DNA of 16,210 bases from a virus (Duplodnaviria; Heunggongvirae; Uroviricota; Caudoviricetes): IMG/VR virus record IMGVR_UViG_2534681773_000025; one strand, written 5' to 3'. The notes below the pieces were generated by a model. The model had not been told where the DNA came from. It worked only from the letters and a program-made list of their open reading frames with translations, and made no database searches. Shown here in pieces: positions 7,724 through 12,880 of the stretch. Position 1 is the first letter of the stretch; every line of letters starts with the position of its first letter. Both the position numbers and the translations under genes were made by a program.

Positions 7724-7743
7724 AAAAACCCGCCGAAGCGGGT
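7724..7743 (-). terminator. Rho-independent terminator with a UUCG tetraloop, copy A (3' end of the hok transcript)
   Basis: Minus strand: CCCGC-UUCG-GCGGG then UUUUU. Same 20-bp sequence as 5888..5908. Confidence 0.6.
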
Positions 7744-7812
7744 TAAGTGCGGGTGCGTTGAGGATGCCTGGCACATCAGAGGTGGCGGGAGATTACTCCC
7801 CCGCCGGGTCTC

Positions 7813-7968
7813 TTACTCCTCAGGTTCGTAAGCTGTGAAGACAGCGACCTCCGTCTGGCCGGTTCGGATTCGTACCTCGCAGAGGTCTTTCCTCGTTACC
7901 AGTGCCGTCACTATGACGGTTAAACAGATGACGATCAGGGCGATTAACATCGCCTTTTGCTGCTTCAT
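7813..7968 (-). CDS. hokD: Hok/Gef-family type I toxin (small membrane peptide)
   Basis: 51-aa ORF MKQQKAMLIALIVICLTVIVTALVTRKDLCEVRIRTGQTEVAVFTAYEPEE, the canonical Hok sequence; I recall it as matching the Qin hokD/relF product. AAGGAG ribosome-binding site upstream. Confidence 0.9.
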   Translation of the reverse strand: MKQQKAMLIALIVICLTVIVTALVTRKDLCEVRIRTGQTEVAVFTAYEPEE

Positions 7969-8025
7969 AGCCTGCTTCTCCTTGCCTTTCGGCACGTAAG
8001 AGGCTAACCTACGTGTGTAGAGCAT
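7813..8025 (-). CDS. mok: mok-like in-frame leader reading frame covering hok
   Basis: 70-aa ORF starting at ATG 8025 and continuing in frame through hok, as in mok/hok loci where translation is coupled. Confidence 0.5.
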   Translation of the reverse strand: MLYTRRLASYVPKGKEKQAMKQQKAMLIALIVICLTVIVTALVTRKDLCEVRIRTGQTEVAVFTAYEPEE

Positions 8026-8100
8026 AGATATGGCCTCAGATTAATGTTAAGCGTCTTGCCGGACGCGTAATGTTAACTGGGGCTTTTCTCTATCTGCCTT
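8000..8100 (+). ncRNA. Expected position of a Sok-like antisense RNA (not resolved)
   Basis: Inferred from hok/sok architecture: the antisense RNA overlaps the mok translation-initiation region from the opposite strand. A weak promoter-like TTGCCT - 17 nt - TAACCT lies at about 7982..8010; no clean terminator identified. Confidence 0.2.
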
Positions 8101-8118
8101 TGGTGTTGATGCCCGAGG
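8085..8118. repeat. Perfect 10-bp inverted repeat (CTATCTGCCT ... AGGCAGATAG) with a 14-nt loop in the hok leader region
   Basis: Read directly from the sequence; probably a structural element of the hok mRNA leader. Confidence 0.5.
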
Positions 8119-8710
8119 CAGATAGCCTCAAGCACCCGCAGCAATTCTACTTAACTACCGTTACCTCGCCAATATGAAATCAATCAGAAAGGTGATCCAT
8201 AAGAACAACAGCAAGACAATAAATTGCCATTACAGCAGCAATAGCCAGCGCACATTTGAGAACCAGCACCACAACCTCCTGTATTGGACGTACACCAGTC
8301 CTGATAAATATGAGGCTGTCTCGTCAGTGATTCAATACAACTACTGGGTATAGTTTCTATGATTTTGTTCTGTGGAAATGGAAAACAGCAACCAGTCACC
8401 ACCAGCACTTCTTTAAACATGCCAAGTCACACGCAAGCCAACATTATAGTTCCCTTTGAGCGAGCAGATGAAGCTAGCAAAAATATTGATCACTTAGGAT
8501 GCATTACTAACGTTGCTATGTGTTAACGAACAGGGAGTGGGTCATCAGCATAAATATTTATGCAGTAGGTTTCTTTTAGGACTAGATTAATCAAAAACAT
8601 TTAGATAAAATTATAAAATCAAGAAATTGGTGGCAATTAATCTTTAATTGTGCCAGCTGAATTTCGTTATTATAGAAGATTAGCTTTTTTTTGAGTGTTT
8701 GGAGAGTAAA

Positions 8711-9406
8711 ATGTTAGAACCACCAAAGAGTTATAATGAAATGTTGCCTATGCTCCATAAGGCGACTTTTATTACTACATTTATATTTTACCTATCATTA
8801 GTCATTTATGGCTACATGCCATTGGTTGGCATTAATGCCAAGTATATCCCCCCCGTTAAAGACTACGAGGAATTTATTAAATGGATATTAACCTTTGGCA
8901 TATTACCAATTGCATCTTCAGTTTTTTGGTCAGTAATTAGTGGAGCTTTAGATCTACATAATAATGTAGCAAAAATTATTGGAATAAGGAAGATGTGGGA
9001 TAGTCATTTAATTATTAAACCATTAGCAAAAATTGCAGGCGTTACGAGAAAATTAACTACTGATGAATCTCACAAGGTAATGAGTAAACTGTATTACCCA
9101 GAAGTTAAAGAGTTAAAAGACAAACATTACGTTGAACTTTTCTGGAACAAAGTTTATTACTTTTGGGTTTTCTTTGAACATACAGTAATCGCATTTGTTA
9201 CTATTTTAATAATAAGTATCGCCAAATTAACAAATATATTCTCTGTTACTGGCTCTTTAATTAATCTTTGGTTGTGGATTATTTCTCTTGTCGCATTTGA
9301 CTTCCTTATTTTCATAGCATCAGTTAAACCAAGAACAGAAAGCCAAGTAAGACAAATACCTGATAGCAAAATAAAAGAATTCTTTAACAATAACAATATT
9401 TTTTAA
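8711..9406 (+). CDS. Hypothetical integral membrane protein with four predicted transmembrane helices, AT-rich
   Basis: ATG 8711 with GGAGAG ribosome-binding site (the track start at 8699 is TTG). Hydrophobic stretches ATFITTFIFYLSLVIYGYMPLVGI, FIKWILTFGILPIASSVFWSVISGAL, YYFWVFFEHTVIAFVTILIISIAKL and LINLWLWIISLVAFDFLIFIASV. The region is much lower in GC than its flanks. Confidence 0.7.
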   Translation: MLEPPKSYNEMLPMLHKATFITTFIFYLSLVIYGYMPLVGINAKYIPPVKDYEEFIKWILTFGILPIASSVFWSVISGALDLHNNVAKIIGIRKMWDSHLIIKPLAKIAGVTRKLTTDESHKVMSKLYYPEVKELKDKHYVELFWNKVYYFWVFFEHTVIAFVTILIISIAKLTNIFSVTGSLINLWLWIISLVAFDFLIFIASVKPRTESQVRQIPDSKIKEFFNNNNIF

Positions 9407-9418
9407 ACGAGGTTGATT

Positions 9419-10072
9419 TTGAATTACAAAATAAATGGAATAAACATACGTTCAGAAAATGCAGCGAAACCGCACACTATGCCATCTAACTATCTCTGTA
9501 AACAGATTGAAAGCACTAATAAAAATGGCAATGCCCTTGATTTTGGATGTGGAAAACTTAGATATTCAGAACAATTAGTAAATAAATTTGAAACTGTGAC
9601 ATTTTTAGATTCCAGAAGACAACTAGAAAGAGTGCAAATTATCAGAGGTGTACAAACCACGATTCCAGATTACGTGATAAATAACTATAAGAATGCTAAT
9701 ATTGTTTCTTATGAAAATATAGATAAAATAACAAATCATTATGATTTCATACTTTGCGCAAACGTGCTTTCCGCAATTCCATGTGAATCCACAATTCACA
9801 AAGTCCTCAGTGCGATTAGAGAATTATTAAAGAGTGATGGTGAAGCACTGATTGTCAATCAATACAAAAGTTCTTATTTCAAGAGGTACGAGAGCGGTAT
9901 TAAACATTTGCATGGGTATATATACCAAAACTCTCGCAATGCTTTCTACTATGGTTTATTAGATGTGGATACTGTAAGTAAAATATGCTCAGATAATAAT
10001 TTAGAAATAATAAAATCATGGAGCAAAGCAGGTAGTTCATATGTGGTTGTTGGTAAACATATACATATTTAG
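9419..10072 (+). CDS. Class I SAM-dependent methyltransferase-like protein (small-molecule/RNA type, not a DNA methyltransferase)
   Basis: Motif I ALDFGCGKLRY. Start is TTG at 9419 (GAGG 6 nt upstream) or TTG at 9413, 7-13 nt after the membrane protein stop, indicating an operon. No DPPY/NPPY motif. Confidence 0.65.
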   Translation: MNYKINGINIRSENAAKPHTMPSNYLCKQIESTNKNGNALDFGCGKLRYSEQLVNKFETVTFLDSRRQLERVQIIRGVQTTIPDYVINNYKNANIVSYENIDKITNHYDFILCANVLSAIPCESTIHKVLSAIRELLKSDGEALIVNQYKSSYFKRYESGIKHLHGYIYQNSRNAFYYGLLDVDTVSKICSDNNLEIIKSWSKAGSSYVVVGKHIHI

Positions 10073-10386
10073 TTTATTTCAACAAATTATTAGAAAGAGT
10101 GATTTGCTTGTTAATTATTAGCTCGGCAGTGCCGGATCAACATGACCCTGCCACTTAGGCCATTGCCGGTTTACCTACTTTTGTAAGGTTCAGCATGAAG
10201 TTTTTATATACTCTTCCTAATATCAATAGTGATGCTCGCTTATGTTAGCTGCTTCTTGTACATAGTAGCCTTCTCCGACAGTACTGCAATGAGCGGAGAG
10301 TAAAAGTCGATAAACAATAAGGAGGTTCACAATAAATATTTCTCGGTGAAACTTTCAAAGCATTCTCTGTTTTGCTAAATCGACAA

Positions 10387-11286
10387 TTATAAATCAACAA
10401 CATTTAGTGTTATATCAATATTATTTAGCCTTGCAATCTCTGATGAATCACTTGCTATTTTAGCTTTTAATTTATCAATATTAATCATATCTTCATGGCT
10501 TATATAAACCATATCACCTTGGTTAACTTTAGATTTGTTCACTATGGCTTGAATAACAGACAAATCATCCATTACACCTCTCATAAATTTCACCATGCTT
10601 TGATCTTTGAAGTCAGATATCGATTTTGAACGTTGCTTACGTTGAATTGTTCCTTTTGTAATTACTTCATTAATTTCTTTTAAACCAGTGAGCATATCAG
10701 ACAGACTGCCTTCGCAACTCATCCGATGTTTTATTGCATTGCGATTAATAATATTGAGTATAATTTCGAGTGAATCTTTATCACTCCATGGATGTAATGA
10801 TGTATAATCATGATGGCGTCGAATGGCGTCAATCATATCCTGGACCATATCTTCATCTGCTTTATCGCAAAGTTCATTCACGAAATAGCTGGGGTCGATT
10901 ATTTTACAATAACTTGGAGTTAGGTATCTTGAGGCTTTACAAAAACCAAAAATATATAAAGTAGAGTATTTATCTTTCAGACTCTCTCCTATTTCATTTA
11001 TTTTCTCAAAAGATTCGATAGTTTTTTTAATTTTTGCTGGACTTGCATTCGTAGTAACTTGAACTGCTATCATGTTTTTATTATCAGCTAAATCAATGGC
11101 GGGAAAATTAACTTTAATCTGATTCATGTTTACCAGTTCACCCATTTTCAGCGCGCGAAACATAAAGATGGTCAATGACTCAATTATTCTTTCCATGTCA
11201 TGAAAGCCTGCCTGTTTGCGTTGCGCGATATAAAGCTGGAGTAGTGCAATATCACTCTGTAAGTTTCTAATAAGTGGATCAATCAT
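10387..11286 (-). CDS. Hypothetical 299-aa cytoplasmic protein, AT-rich, convergent with the membrane/methyltransferase operon
   Basis: ATG 11286 with AAGGA ribosome-binding site. N-terminal block NFPAIDLADNKNMIAVQVTTNASPAKIKKTIESF resembles PD-(D/E)xK-like or SMEK-type N-terminal modules, but this is unverified. Confidence 0.65.
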   Translation of the reverse strand: MIDPLIRNLQSDIALLQLYIAQRKQAGFHDMERIIESLTIFMFRALKMGELVNMNQIKVNFPAIDLADNKNMIAVQVTTNASPAKIKKTIESFEKINEIGESLKDKYSTLYIFGFCKASRYLTPSYCKIIDPSYFVNELCDKADEDMVQDMIDAIRRHHDYTSLHPWSDKDSLEIILNIINRNAIKHRMSCEGSLSDMLTGLKEINEVITKGTIQRKQRSKSISDFKDQSMVKFMRGVMDDLSVIQAIVNKSKVNQGDMVYISHEDMINIDKLKAKIASDSSEIARLNNIDITLNVVDL

Positions 11287-11322
11287 AGCTAATAATCCTT
11301 TTCAATGAAGCTGGAGGTGTGT

Positions 11323-11337
11323 TTAACTATTAGTTAA
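11323..11337. promoter_or_regulatory. Perfect palindrome TTAACTA-t-TAGTTAA upstream of the 299-aa gene (candidate operator)
   Basis: Read from the sequence, about 35 bp upstream of the start codon. AT-rich context, so chance occurrence is possible. Confidence 0.3.
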
Positions 11338-11547
11338 ATTTCTATTTTTATAGAAACAAGCTTTACAACTTCATCAAAGTTTCTCAAATCCTAATCCACT
11401 TTGCAAATCCACTAACCATGCTGAATGCTTTCTGTTGTTAAACATATCCGCTGCTGGCACCAAGCAGACAAACACACTAACTCTACCCTACTCCACAAAA
11501 GAGCCAATCAATATCTGAACTAATAAACTTTAATCTCATCACTTCAA

Positions 11548-11552: not shown

Positions 11553-11563
11553 TGGATTTGCCC

Positions 11564-12469
11564 CTATATTTCCAGACATCTGTTATCACTTAACCCATTA
11601 CAAGCCCGCTGCCGCAGATATTCCCGTGGCGAGCGATAACCCAGCGCACTATGCGGATGCCATTCGTTATAATGCTCGAACGCCTCTGCAAGGTTCTTTG
11701 CTGCCGTTAACCCGTCTGGTTTGGGCATGATACTGATGTAGTCACGCTTTATCGTTTTCACGAAGCTCTCTGCTATTCCGTTACTCTCCGGACTCCGCAC
11801 CGCCGTGTTCTTCGGTTCAAGTCCCAACATCCGGGCGAACTGGCGTGTTTCATTAGCCCGGTAGCATGAACCATTATCCGTCAGCCACTCCACTGGAGAC
11901 GACGGAAGATCGTTGCCGAAGCGGCGTTCCACCGCTCCCAGCATGACGTCCTGTACTGTTTCACTGTTGAAGCCGCCGGTAGTGACCGCCCAGTGCAGTG
12001 CCTCACGATCACAGCAGTCCAGCGCGAACGTGACACGCAGTCTCTCTCCGTTATCACAGCAGAACTCGAACCCGTCAGAGCACCATCGCTGATTGCTTTC
12101 TTTCACGGCCACTCTGCCTGTATGTGCCCGTTTCGATGGCGGTACAGCAGGTTTTCGCTCAAGCAACAGCGCATTCTGGCGCATGATCCGGTAAACACGT
12201 TTGGCATTGATCGCAGGCATACCATCAAGTTCTGCCTGTCTGCGAAGCAGCGCCCATACCCGACGATAACCATACGTGGGCAGCTCTCCGATAACATGGT
12301 GTATACGGAGAAGCACATCCGTATCATCAGTGTGACGACTGCGGCGGCCATCCATCCAGTCATCGGTTCGTCTGAGAATGACGTGCAACTGCGCACGCGA
12401 CACCCGGAGACAACGGCTGACTAAGCTTACTCCCCATCCCCGGGCAATAAGGGCGCGTGCGCTATCCAC
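11564..12469 (-). CDS. insD: IS2 transposase OrfB (InsD); expressed as an OrfAB fusion by -1 frameshift
   Basis: 301-aa [33 protein letters not shown]... with a DDE transposase/integrase core. Confidence 0.9.
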
Positions 12470-12792
12470 TTTTTTGCCCGTCCATATTCAACGGCTTCTT
12501 TGAGGAGTTCATTTTCCATCGTTTTCTTGCCGAGCAGGCGCTGGAGTTCTTTAATCTGCTTCATGGCGGCAGCAAGTTCAGAGGCAGGAACAACCTGTTC
12601 TCCGGCGGCGACAGCAGTAAGACTTCCTTCCTGGTATTGCTTACGCCAGAGAAATAACTGGCTGGCTGCTACACCATGTTGCCGGGCAACGAGGGAGACC
12701 GTCATCCCCGGTTCAAAGCTCTGCTGAACAATTGCGATCTTTTCCTGTGTGGTACGCCGTCTGCGTTTCTCCGGCCCTAAGACATCAATCAT
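12427..12792 (-). CDS. insC: IS2 OrfA (InsC) HTH regulator/transposase N-terminal part
   Basis: 121 aa from ATG 12792 ([26 protein letters not shown]...). The 136-aa track ORF starts further upstream inside the inverted repeat. Confidence 0.9.
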
Positions 12793-12880
12793 CTGTTCTC
12801 CAATGACTAGTCTAAAAACTAGTATTAAGACTATCACTTATTTAAGTGATACTGGTTGTCTGGAGATTCAGGGGGCCAGT

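Follow-up and report, generated by a model that had tools for sequence, protein, structure and literature searches.

The hokD-like gene of the window (the whole stretch of 16,210 nt of viral DNA analysed here) is most likely part of a hok/mok/sok type I toxin-antitoxin module that is complete, belongs to the hokD/hokW subtype, carries promoters of its own and is situated in the early region of a Qin-like lambdoid prophage. We assign this reading a probability of about 0.86. The position of the module relative to the prophage is that of hokD in K-12 Qin. It spans about 7722..8172, a near-exact match to the interval 7724..8180 given by the initial annotation, which had been made from the DNA letters. 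The locus is already known, and RefSeq annotates hokD. The discovery value is small: annotations of complete hokD/hokW-type lambdoid modules go back to the 933W genome, large-scale surveys of them exist, and experiments have characterised one close homologue. There is, however, a correction to be made: because K-12 hokD is truncated and atypical, it is unsuitable as a template for judging the hokD loci of other strains.

The hok and mok reading frames and the hok mRNA

The hok CDS (7813..7968, minus strand) encodes 51 amino acids plus a stop codon, and its product is the same as K-12 HokD/RelF (51/51 residues identical, E 1e-30 in tblastn). The peptide matches Pfam PF01848 HOK_GEF with 81.6 bits at a cut-off of 22, and the full profile 1-42 is covered. 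The mok ORF (7813..8025, minus strand) has 70 codons, starts with the ATG at 8025..8023, about 57 nt upstream of the hok ATG, and consists of 19 leader codons followed by Hok in the same frame. This in-frame arrangement is also annotated for mokC/hokC of K-12 and mokW/hokW of 933W. The initial description of a hok/mok type I toxin locus with a peptide matching HokD was correct. The mok Shine-Dalgarno sequence GAGG (8034..8037, minus strand) is located 8 nt upstream of the mok ATG and is invariant in 7 of 7 aligned loci; that of hok, AAGGAG (7978..7983, minus strand), is invariant across all aligned loci. The Tyr47 codon region of hok reads TACG (7830..7827, minus strand), the motif for A-to-I editing by TadA, and editing of hokD mRNA by TadA at this motif has been reported (PMC5630033, PMC12214031). 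The overexpressed HokD peptide is toxic (bioRxiv 10.1101/2025.08.07.668861).

The predicted hok/mok promoter (8144..8172, minus strand) has the -35 hexamer TTGGCG (8172..8167), a 17-nt spacer and the -10 hexamer TAGAAT (8149..8144), and it scored 9/12 in the promoter scan. Its -10 and start region are kept in 933W, Rac and K-12 hokC. The transcript probably starts with the G at 8137, which is aligned with the first position of the Rfam sok model. The promoter scan also called another promoter-like site on the minus strand within the leader (8050..8021), which was treated as a chance match. At the other end, the terminator scan found an intrinsic terminator, AACCCGCUUCGGCGGGUU plus a U-run (7722..7744, minus strand), which is identical in K-12 hokD. 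Taking the ends from homology and from this terminator, the full-length hok mRNA is predicted to cover 7722..8137 (minus strand, about 416 nt), of which 7969..8137 is the leader containing the antisense sok gene. The genes next upstream of hok are on the opposite strand. With a promoter and a terminator of its own, the locus is autonomous as judged from these signals.

All elements known to govern such a messenger are present at their expected places and are conserved. The 5' end of the hok mRNA is formed by tac, the translational activator element GGGUGCUUGAGG (8126..8137, minus strand). The upstream complementary box ucb, the anti-Shine-Dalgarno element of mok, reads AAGCCCC (8079..8085, minus strand) and its position is homologous to that of the R1 ucb (PMC9841398). 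The downstream complementary box dcb, GCCUC (8000..8004, minus strand), is predicted to pair with the mok Shine-Dalgarno region in the open form. It was assigned by position relative to R1 (PMC9841398), is invariant in the homologues, and its stem is part of the Rfam consensus structure. In the 3' UTR, the hairpin GGCGGGGGAG-UAAU-CUCCCGCC (7784..7805, minus strand) is the positional counterpart of the terminal hairpin in processed R1 hok mRNA, and by this position it is probably equivalent (PMC9841398). Downstream of it lies fbi, the fold-back inhibition element CCUCAACGCACCC (7751..7763, minus strand), which is complementary to tac over 12 bp, interrupted by a single bulge.

A perfect 10-bp inverted repeat had been noticed upstream of hok and placed at 8085..8118. 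The repeat exists, but its arms are 8090-8099 (CTATCTGCCT) and 8116-8125 (AGGCAGATAG). It is the conserved 5' hairpin of the hok mRNA (8090..8125, minus strand, with arms 8125..8116 and 8099..8090), and the 10 bp are the core of a 21-nt imperfect repeat (8079-8099 / 8116-8136). Among 2000 shuffles of 7700-8200, only 22 contained a perfect 10-bp inverted repeat whose loop did not exceed 40 nt. Compensatory changes keep the pairing of the hairpin at alignment columns 15/63 (A-U, but U-A in R1 and G-U in hokC), 21/57 and 27/51.

The same upstream region had been called non-coding. This is correct for proteins: the small upstream ORFs have no Pfam match and RefSeq annotates nothing there, and a Cys-rich 78-aa ORF (8184..8420, minus strand), considered as a candidate gene, likewise has neither. 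For RNA the term is misleading, since the leader, sok and the hok promoter are located there.

The antisense gene sok and the predicted pairings

A cis-encoded antisense gene, sok, with a predicted promoter and terminator, overlaps the translation start of mok. The sok promoter (7982..8010, plus strand) was placed by homology with sokW and R1. It consists of the -35 hexamer TTGCCT (7982..7987), a 17-nt spacer and the -10 hexamer TAACCT (8005..8010), all of which are identical to the sokW promoter of 933W. The generic consensus scan did not call it, because its -10 hexamer has only 3/6 matches to the sigma-70 consensus. In sokW, a promoter-less mutant (primers YO-421/422) in which the -10 hexamer is altered frees the toxicity of HokW (PMC8621323). 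As -35, spacer and -10 match those of sokW, whose -10 was mutated experimentally, the doubt over a sok promoter raised by the initial annotation is largely resolved at sequence level. That annotation had left it open whether the toxin is controlled by Sok or silent; the sequence favours the former. The alignment to characterised hok/sok loci which it proposed placed the sok promoter, fbi, tac and ucb alike.

The predicted Sok antisense RNA ('sokD') covers 8017..8087 (plus strand, 71 nt), with coordinates transferred from the annotated sokW of 933W; the K-12 sokC annotation places the 5' end at the same point. Its single-stranded 5' tail (8017..8031) has complementarity to the mok start region and is followed by a long stem-loop (8032..8084) and a U-run; the predicted fold has -29.7 kcal/mol (z = -5.3). 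The Rfam family RF01794 (sok) matches in full length at 8137..7963 with 114 bits, compared with a gathering score of 59 (E 9e-26). In a low-threshold Rfam search of 7600..8800, sub-threshold chance matches were the only hits besides sok.

Folding of the full-length hok RNA gave an MFE of -174.7 kcal/mol (z = -8.1 relative to shuffles), in which the 5' end and the 3' fbi are paired. The tac-fbi pairing occurs in both the MFE and the centroid structure, with pair probabilities of 0.73-1.0 across fbi and of about 1.0 for tac in the full-length RNA. It is further indicated by compensating changes relative to R1, where tac GGCGC corresponds to GGGUGC here and fbi GCGCC to GCACCC. As R1 reference, we used an IncFII plasmid whose Hok is 100% identical to R1 Hok. 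In nascent as well as full-length RNA, C56/C57 of ucb pair with G104/G103 of the mok Shine-Dalgarno sequence at a probability of 0.97-0.99. Once the 3' end is trimmed to 352-360, tac is predicted to pair with ucb at a probability of 0.3-0.8, a value that shifts with the assumed 3' end; these ends were picked by position relative to +361 of R1. When folded, an RNA cut at 7762 does not give the open form: a second stretch, CCAGGCAUCC, can still pair with tac, and the predicted 5'-3' pairing stays. Applied to 7 diverse loci, R1-type and hokC among them, RNAalifold recovered both the stem of tac with ucb and the inner hairpin, and the stem is also present in the Rfam structure. A Klebsiella-type plasmid hok was dropped because ISKpn8 abuts its leader.

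Comparison with K-12 hokD and other hok/sok loci

In K-12 Qin, relB, relE and hokD are consecutive genes on the minus strand, as the initial annotation had stated. Its observation that no RelE- or RelB-like ORF lies upstream of hok also held: a tblastn search with K-12 RelE and RelB in all frames of the whole 16 kb window found neither (best E-values 0.44 and 1.7). The relBEF operon arrangement does not occur here, and the position of K-12 relE is taken by the hok leader, sok and the hok promoter. The prophage neighbourhood is shared with K-12 Qin, with dicA/dicC 98.6% identical and ydfU/rem about 81%.

K-12 shares only 7723..7982 of the window; besides the hok CDS and the 3' UTR, this part takes in 14 nt ahead of the ATG. 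Over these 260 nt, including the 3' hairpin, fbi and terminator, the identity is 98.5%. K-12 hokD lacks the hok promoter, tac, the 5' hairpin, ucb, the Shine-Dalgarno sequence and start of mok, dcb, the sok -10 hexamer and the Sok RNA. It keeps the hok Shine-Dalgarno sequence only in part, as the similarity to the window ends at 7982. The 155-nt leader that is absent in K-12 and present here has homologous counterparts in R1, hokC and hokW. Because leader and sok are missing, K-12 hokD is read through from the relBE promoter and escapes antisense control, in contrast to the autonomous locus in the window. Published accounts describe K-12 hokD as a 'rearranged' form (PMC12214031, PMC5630033, bioRxiv 10.1101/2025.08.07.668861). 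As far as sequence comparison can tell, K-12 hokD is thus a truncated, atypical version and the locus in the window is the ordinary, complete copy.

Of 5426 complete E. coli genomes, 1166 have the K-12 relE-hokD junction, and about 3500 others carry hokD-like genes which diverge from K-12 at the same point. A locus covering at least 80% of a 601-bp segment of the window is present in 2021 of the 5426 genomes; at least 19 E. coli chromosomes contain the segment with 100% identity, and each of these has a hokD annotation. To describe hok as retained without relBE, with the K-12 operon as the reference state, is therefore the wrong way round, since K-12 lacks leader, mok and sok and its junction is the minority state. 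Strains FORC 064 and SLK172 both match the window with 100% identity over 7650..8250. For the identical locus of strain FORC 064, RefSeq annotates the hokD CDS alone. As mok and sok are unannotated, readers of the gene table would miss the antitoxin.

The closest characterised relative is hokW-mokW-sokW of 933W / VT2-Sakai (Sp5), with 94.6% identity over 405 nt and the same order of promoter, tac, 5' hairpin, ucb, in-frame mok, dcb, hok Shine-Dalgarno sequence, 3' hairpin and fbi. Both loci are in lambdoid prophages; hokW lies near the phage genome end, whereas the locus in the window occupies the early region, with the replication genes on one side and the Q gene on the other. Downstream of fbi, the window carries the terminator of K-12 hokD type, which 933W does not. 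The Hok C-termini differ (...FTAYEPEE in the window, ...FVDYESEK in HokW). Sok and sokW match at 65 of 71 nt; stem-loop and terminator are identical, including an 18-nt hairpin extension, and all 6 differences are substitutions in the 17-nt 5' tail which are matched by changes in the mok start region. Hence, the two antisense RNAs are probably not interchangeable. Experimentally, hokW-sokW was established as a toxin-antitoxin pair of type I: mutation of the sok promoter causes toxicity, sokW supplied in trans relieves it, and both RNAs are seen on Northern blots (PMC8621323). HokW, which is nearly the same as HokD, is 44% identical to R1 Hok; after mitomycin C, it is made, lowers viability and doubles phage release (PMC8621323).

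The hok/mok/sok locus of plasmid R1 (parB), the paradigm for the mechanism, has the same element order and spacing, and its tac, ucb, dcb and fbi are homologous to the elements in the window, although the Hok peptides are distant. The Rfam family that the window matches with 114 bits was built around the leader of this type. In the R1-type IncFII copy, the ATGs of mok and hok are at +112 and +169, compared with +113 and +170 in the window. The mok ATG of this copy is thus 57 nt upstream of hok and in frame, while for R1 a distance of 58 nt follows from the numbering in PMC9841398, which places its mok one nucleotide out of frame, unlike mok of the window. The sok promoters occupy homologous positions (TTGCGC-17-TATCCT in R1, TTGCCT-17-TAACCT in the window), and the Sok terminator stem is 18 nt longer in the window than in R1. 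The R1 locus is plasmid-borne and its role in post-segregational killing is proven (PMC9841398 and references there).

In K-12 hokC/mokC/sokC (gef), mok is in frame and shares its stop codon with hok, and tac, ucb and the hairpin are conserved. The 5' end of sokC, 8 nt inside mokC, corresponds to 8017 of the window. The 18-nt hairpin extension is absent from the hokC leader. In K-12, this locus is regarded as inactivated; IS186 lies just downstream of the hokC stop, while the locus in the window has no internal IS.

Proposed mechanism and possible roles

Its homology to hok/sok of plasmid R1 and to hokW-sokW of phage 933W/Sp5 suggests how the module would be transcribed, processed and become toxic, and which role it might have; prophage stabilisation, a contribution to lysis and phage exclusion are candidates. 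Transcription from the promoter at 8172..8144 would yield the ~416-nt hok mRNA. As long as this mRNA is nascent or full length, ucb would hold the mok Shine-Dalgarno sequence and the 5' tac would be locked to the 3' fbi, so that the closed messenger would be neither translated nor bound by Sok. Slow trimming of the 3' end would remove fbi, after which tac would pair with ucb and open the ribosome-binding site of mok. Translation of hok would require translation of mok, which is in frame here. The unstable 71-nt Sok from the opposite strand (8017..8087) would bind the mok start region and thereby block mok and hence hok. The Sok-mRNA duplex would be degraded, as it is by RNase III in R1 and in a partly RNase III- and Hfq-dependent manner for sokW. 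When sok transcription halts, because the element is lost or because, as demonstrated with hokW, the prophage is induced, the stable processed mRNA would be translated and the 51-aa Hok would damage the inner membrane.

An intact sequence is no guarantee of activity, because chromosomal loci have failed in such tests: Pedersen & Gerdes 1999, in the account given by bioRxiv 10.1101/2025.08.07.668861, found neither post-segregational killing nor rifampicin activation for hokA (E. coli C), hokB (K-12) and hokC (ECOR24). In the alternative implied by the initial annotation, the gene would be an orphan or silent toxin, left over from relB-relE-hokD after loss of relBE, with no working Sok and no independent expression signals. 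The existence of that operon in K-12 and a sok promoter that is weak by consensus and missed by the scan point this way, but we consider such an origin highly improbable. The 155-nt leader with mok, sok, tac and ucb is present and homologous to those of R1, hokC and hokW, the locus has its own promoter and terminator, and its sok promoter is identical to the validated one of sokW (PMC8621323). Furthermore, the similarity to K-12 ends 14 nt upstream of the hok ATG, the relE-linked junction is a minority (1166/5426 genomes), and the window holds no trace of relB or relE. It is also quite unlikely that the module is intact but physiologically inert, a neutral prophage passenger in which both RNAs are made and single-copy Sok always wins. 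Single-copy chromosomal toxin genes may indeed be harder to activate (PMC1635323), but hokW-sokW, a homologue in a single-copy prophage, makes HokW after mitomycin C (PMC8621323). All regulatory elements are intact in thousands of genomes, which is unexpected for a neutral remnant, although recent phage spread could also explain it.

The molecular mechanism could be the same and the main role abortive-infection-type phage exclusion, within a defence island together with RosmerTA and low-GC cargo. The genes for RmrT/RmrA (RosmerTA) directly downstream of the hok terminator, an SMEK-domain protein and a methyltransferase upstream in a segment of 30-35% GC, and the lowered plating of T4 with R1 hok/sok on a high-copy plasmid (work cited in PMC8621323) are in line with this. 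Nevertheless, we regard this role as unlikely: the survey in bioRxiv 10.1101/2025.08.07.668861 found hok enriched in prophages and not beside defence systems, and in the one prophage copy that has been tested directly, hokW, the effect was to aid phage release and not defence. As the RosmerTA junction occurs in 232 of 5426 genomes and hokD-type loci are far commoner, the association is not general. Similarly doubtful is the idea that the hok terminator is a recurrent recombination boundary at which lambdoid prophages exchange defence cargo, with hok/sok as an addiction element that stabilises this cargo. The complete, Sok-controlled hok/mok/sok module remains the preferred reading.

Separately, we noticed that the 1.8-kb RosmerTA cassette, which comprises rmrT-rmrA (about 5909..7722), directly adjoins the hok terminator. 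A 20-bp stretch of the terminator, AAAAACCCGCCGAAGCGGGT, flanks the cassette as a direct repeat at 5889..5908 and 7723..7742. K-12 has one copy of this repeat and no RosmerTA cassette, and in most genomes the similarity to the window breaks precisely at 7723.

The hokD-type genes and their K-12 counterpart

The ORF listing gave a 70-codon ORF at 8025..7813 (minus strand), the final 51 codons of which read MKQQKAMLIALIVICLTVIVTALVTRKDLCEVRIRTGQTEVAVFTAYEPEE. With K-12 HokD as a query, tblastn returned 51/51 identity at 7968..7816 (-), in line with the HokD identity proposed in the initial annotation, and the peptide scored 81.6 bits against Pfam HOK_GEF. TACG at 7827..7830 (-), in the Tyr47 codon and known as a TadA A-to-I editing motif, is conserved at this locus.

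In K-12 MG1655, relB, relE, and hokD lie consecutively on the minus strand of Qin, in agreement with the operon order given in the initial annotation. RelE and RelB are absent from all frames of the 16 kb window (tblastn with K-12 queries; best E-values 0.44 and 1.7), as had been noted for the DNA upstream of hok. Taken together with the HokD match, the factual core of the initial annotation is therefore correct. Its interpretation, a toxin retained without relBE, is supported in part, with its direction reversed. The match of the hok locus to the K-12 Qin segment is confined to 7723..7982 (98.5%, BLAST) and stops 14 nt upstream of the hok ATG, beyond which K-12 carries relE. Hence, judged by this alignment, K-12 hokD is the truncated form, without promoter, tac, ucb, mok, and sok, and the window copy is the complete one. 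This agrees with the account in PMC12214031 and PMC5630033 (both citing Pedersen & Gerdes 1999) that K-12 hokD was inactivated when the genome was rearranged and canonical TA components were lost. Counts across genomes fit this view: of 5426 complete E. coli genomes, 1166 have the K-12 relE-hokD junction, and in the remaining ~3500 genomes with a match, similarity ends at the same K-12 breakpoint. The K-12 Qin flanks share the prophage framework of the window (dicA/dicC and neighbours 98.6%, ydfU-rem region ~81% identical; BLAST).

The mok ORF is in frame with hok and adds 19 N-terminal codons, as annotated for K-12 mokC/hokC and 933W mokW/hokW. In contrast, mok is out of frame in a Rac-type relative, owing to a 1-nt insertion, and in plasmid R1, where the published numbering implies a mok-hok distance of 58 nt (PMC9841398). 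The frame is uninformative, as hok needs mok to be translated only as far as the hok start (PMC9841398). In L008, the copy on the IncFII plasmid NZ_CP128973.1 (183..600), Hok is 100% identical to R1 Hok and the mok ATG lies 57 nt upstream of hok, i.e., in frame; copies, or versions of the sequence, may differ here by 1 nt.

Leader elements, Sok, and predicted RNA folds

Scanning the window against Rfam gave a full-length match to RF01794 (sok) at 8137..7963 (-), scoring 114 bits (gathering score 59; E 9e-26). This model spans the 5' leader of hok mRNA, antisense sok gene included, and it is this leader that makes up the upstream DNA described as non-coding. Element definitions from R1, as summarised in PMC9841398, were each placed by alignment with 933W hokW/mokW/sokW, a Rac-type prophage hok, K-12 hokC/mokC/sokC, P1-like plasmid copies, and an R1-type IncFII plasmid copy. 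On the minus strand, the hok promoter (TTGGCG-17-TAGAAT, 8172..8144) and the inferred +1 (G, 8137) are followed by tac (GGGUGCUUGAGG, 8137..8126), a 5' hairpin (8125..8090), ucb (AAGCCCC, 8085..8079), the mok SD (GAGG, 8037..8034) and ATG (8025), dcb (GCCUC, 8004..8000), the hok SD (AAGGAG, 7983..7978) and CDS (7968..7813), a 3' hairpin (7805..7784), fbi (CCUCAACGCACCC, 7763..7751), and the intrinsic terminator of hok (7744..7722). On the plus strand are the sok promoter (TTGCCT-17-TAACCT, 7982..8010) and a predicted Sok RNA of 71 nt (8017..8087), both ends of which were taken from the 933W sokW annotation, the 5' end agreeing with that of K-12 sokC. The comparison suggested earlier, with characterised hok/sok loci, located the sok promoter, fbi, tac, and ucb. 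The 5' hairpin is the perfect 10-bp inverted repeat noted in the initial annotation, which exists with a small coordinate correction: its arms are at 8090-8099 and 8116-8125, not 8085..8118. It sits within a 21-nt imperfect repeat, and when the region was shuffled 2000 times, just 22 of the shuffles contained such a repeat. Immediately upstream of the hok promoter is a 78-aa cysteine-rich ORF (8184..8420, -; ...GYCCCNGNLLSCCCSYGSPF), which is probably not a gene because it has no Pfam match and no RefSeq annotation.

A generic promoter scan made no call at the sok promoter, as TAACCT fits the consensus at only 3/6 positions. The -35, spacer, and -10 are, however, identical to those of 933W sokW, whose -10 was mapped and mutated by Takada et al. 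with primers YO-421/YO-422, which alter the complement of TAACCT (PMC8621323). There, the construct without the sokW promoter was toxic, sokW in trans rescued it, and Northern probes detected both hokW and sokW RNAs (PMC8621323). The window Sok differs from sokW at 6/71 positions, all in the single-stranded 5' tail. Hence, the question of Sok and its promoter, previously left open, is answered at the sequence level: as far as sequence can tell, the locus includes a Sok gene whose promoter is of the validated type. The predicted RNA has the canonical Sok shape in the folding model (-29.7 kcal/mol, z = -5.3): a free 5' tail of 15 nt leads into a long terminator hairpin.

Full-length hok mRNA is predicted to fold at -174.7 kcal/mol (z = -8.1 vs shuffles) with its 5' end paired to fbi; in the partition function, tac-fbi pairing has a probability of ~1.0 and mok-SD/ucb pairing one of 0.97. 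For the first 175 nt of nascent mRNA, a metastable 5' hairpin is predicted, with SD/ucb pairing at 0.99. The trimmed mRNA was ended just past the 3' hairpin, by analogy with the R1 +361 end. Here, the MFE structure for ends 345 and 352 is that of the tac-ucb stem, and at ends 352-360 its probability is 0.3-0.8 and SD/ucb pairing drops. Trimming no further than 7762 leaves the two ends held together by a second complementary stretch. The modelled closed-to-open switch on 3' trimming is therefore suggestive and depends on the assumed 3' end. RNAalifold recovered the tac-ucb stem and the inner hairpin from seven diverse leaders, with compensatory changes at three pairs, one being an A-U to U-A change between window and R1 inside the 10-bp repeat.

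Control of the module and neighbouring genes

In the standard and best-supported reading, the hok module would be repressed by Sok, with mRNA-fold control in addition as in R1. We assign a probability of about 0.86 to a complete, Sok-controlled module. An orphan or silent remnant is highly improbable. It is unlikely, to a lesser degree, that the module is intact and never fires. In the hokW system, sokW RNA disappears when the prophage is induced (mitomycin C, RecA-dependent), HokW is found in the inner membrane, and twice as much phage is released (PMC8621323). Post-segregational killing is described in bioRxiv 10.1101/2025.08.07.668861 as absent for three other chromosomal hok loci. A role in a defence island would be one version of the complete, Sok-controlled reading and is compatible with it. 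R1 hok/sok is mentioned in PMC8621323 as able to lower T4 plating.

The hok terminator is followed immediately downstream by a RosmerTA anti-phage gene pair (5913..7647, -), consisting of an RmrT-like protein of 216 aa (6997..7647, -; PADLOC PDLC03929, 4.6e-25) and an RmrA-like protein of 368 aa with HTH and Peptidase_M78 domains (5913..7019, -; PDLC03943, 6e-105). The cassette is flanked by a 20-bp direct repeat, AAAAACCCGCCGAAGCGGGT, corresponding to the hok terminator hairpin (5889..5908 and 7723..7742), whereas K-12 Qin has a single copy and lacks the 1.8-kb cassette. Of 5426 complete genomes, 232 have the junction between cassette and hok; in the others, similarity to the window ends exactly at 7723.

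Upstream of hok, 8400..11500 is of low GC (~30-35%) and forms a cargo segment followed by an IS insertion. It encodes a membrane-like protein of 235 aa (8699..9406, no Pfam match), a class I SAM methyltransferase (9413..10072), and an SMEK_N-domain protein (10387..11286; PADLOC Aga_REase-PNTD model, 1.4e-20), and is possibly a defence or moron island. The 1.3-kb insertion relative to FORC 064 (11553..12879) carries two overlapping transposase ORFs (136 and 301 aa), which we take to resemble IS2 (IS3 family; InsC/InsD), and adjoins DUF977/replication genes. In the prophage late region, 976..1492 (-) matches the STnc100 sRNA at 138 bits and includes three tRNA genes, as is usual for lambdoid phages downstream of Q.

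Distribution

Loci of this kind are known and widespread, and they have been annotated before. Among the 5426 complete E. coli genomes, 2021 have a locus that spans 80% or more of 7650..8250, and this 601-bp segment is 100% identical in at least 19 chromosomes, every one annotated hokD. Phages carry close copies too, in 110 records (Stx phages, Rac-type, P1), as do P1-like IncY plasmids. At the 100%-identical locus of strain FORC 064 (L001, 8164..8319), RefSeq annotates the hokD CDS alone, whereas the mok ORF and sok RNA, unannotated there, are both annotated in 933W. Record PP818812.1, "Actinobacillus phage vB_Apl-pPE4", has a hok locus 96.7% identical to that of the window, which is surprising for a Pasteurellaceae phage; the record may be mislabelled or may contain sequence from an E. 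coli prophage.
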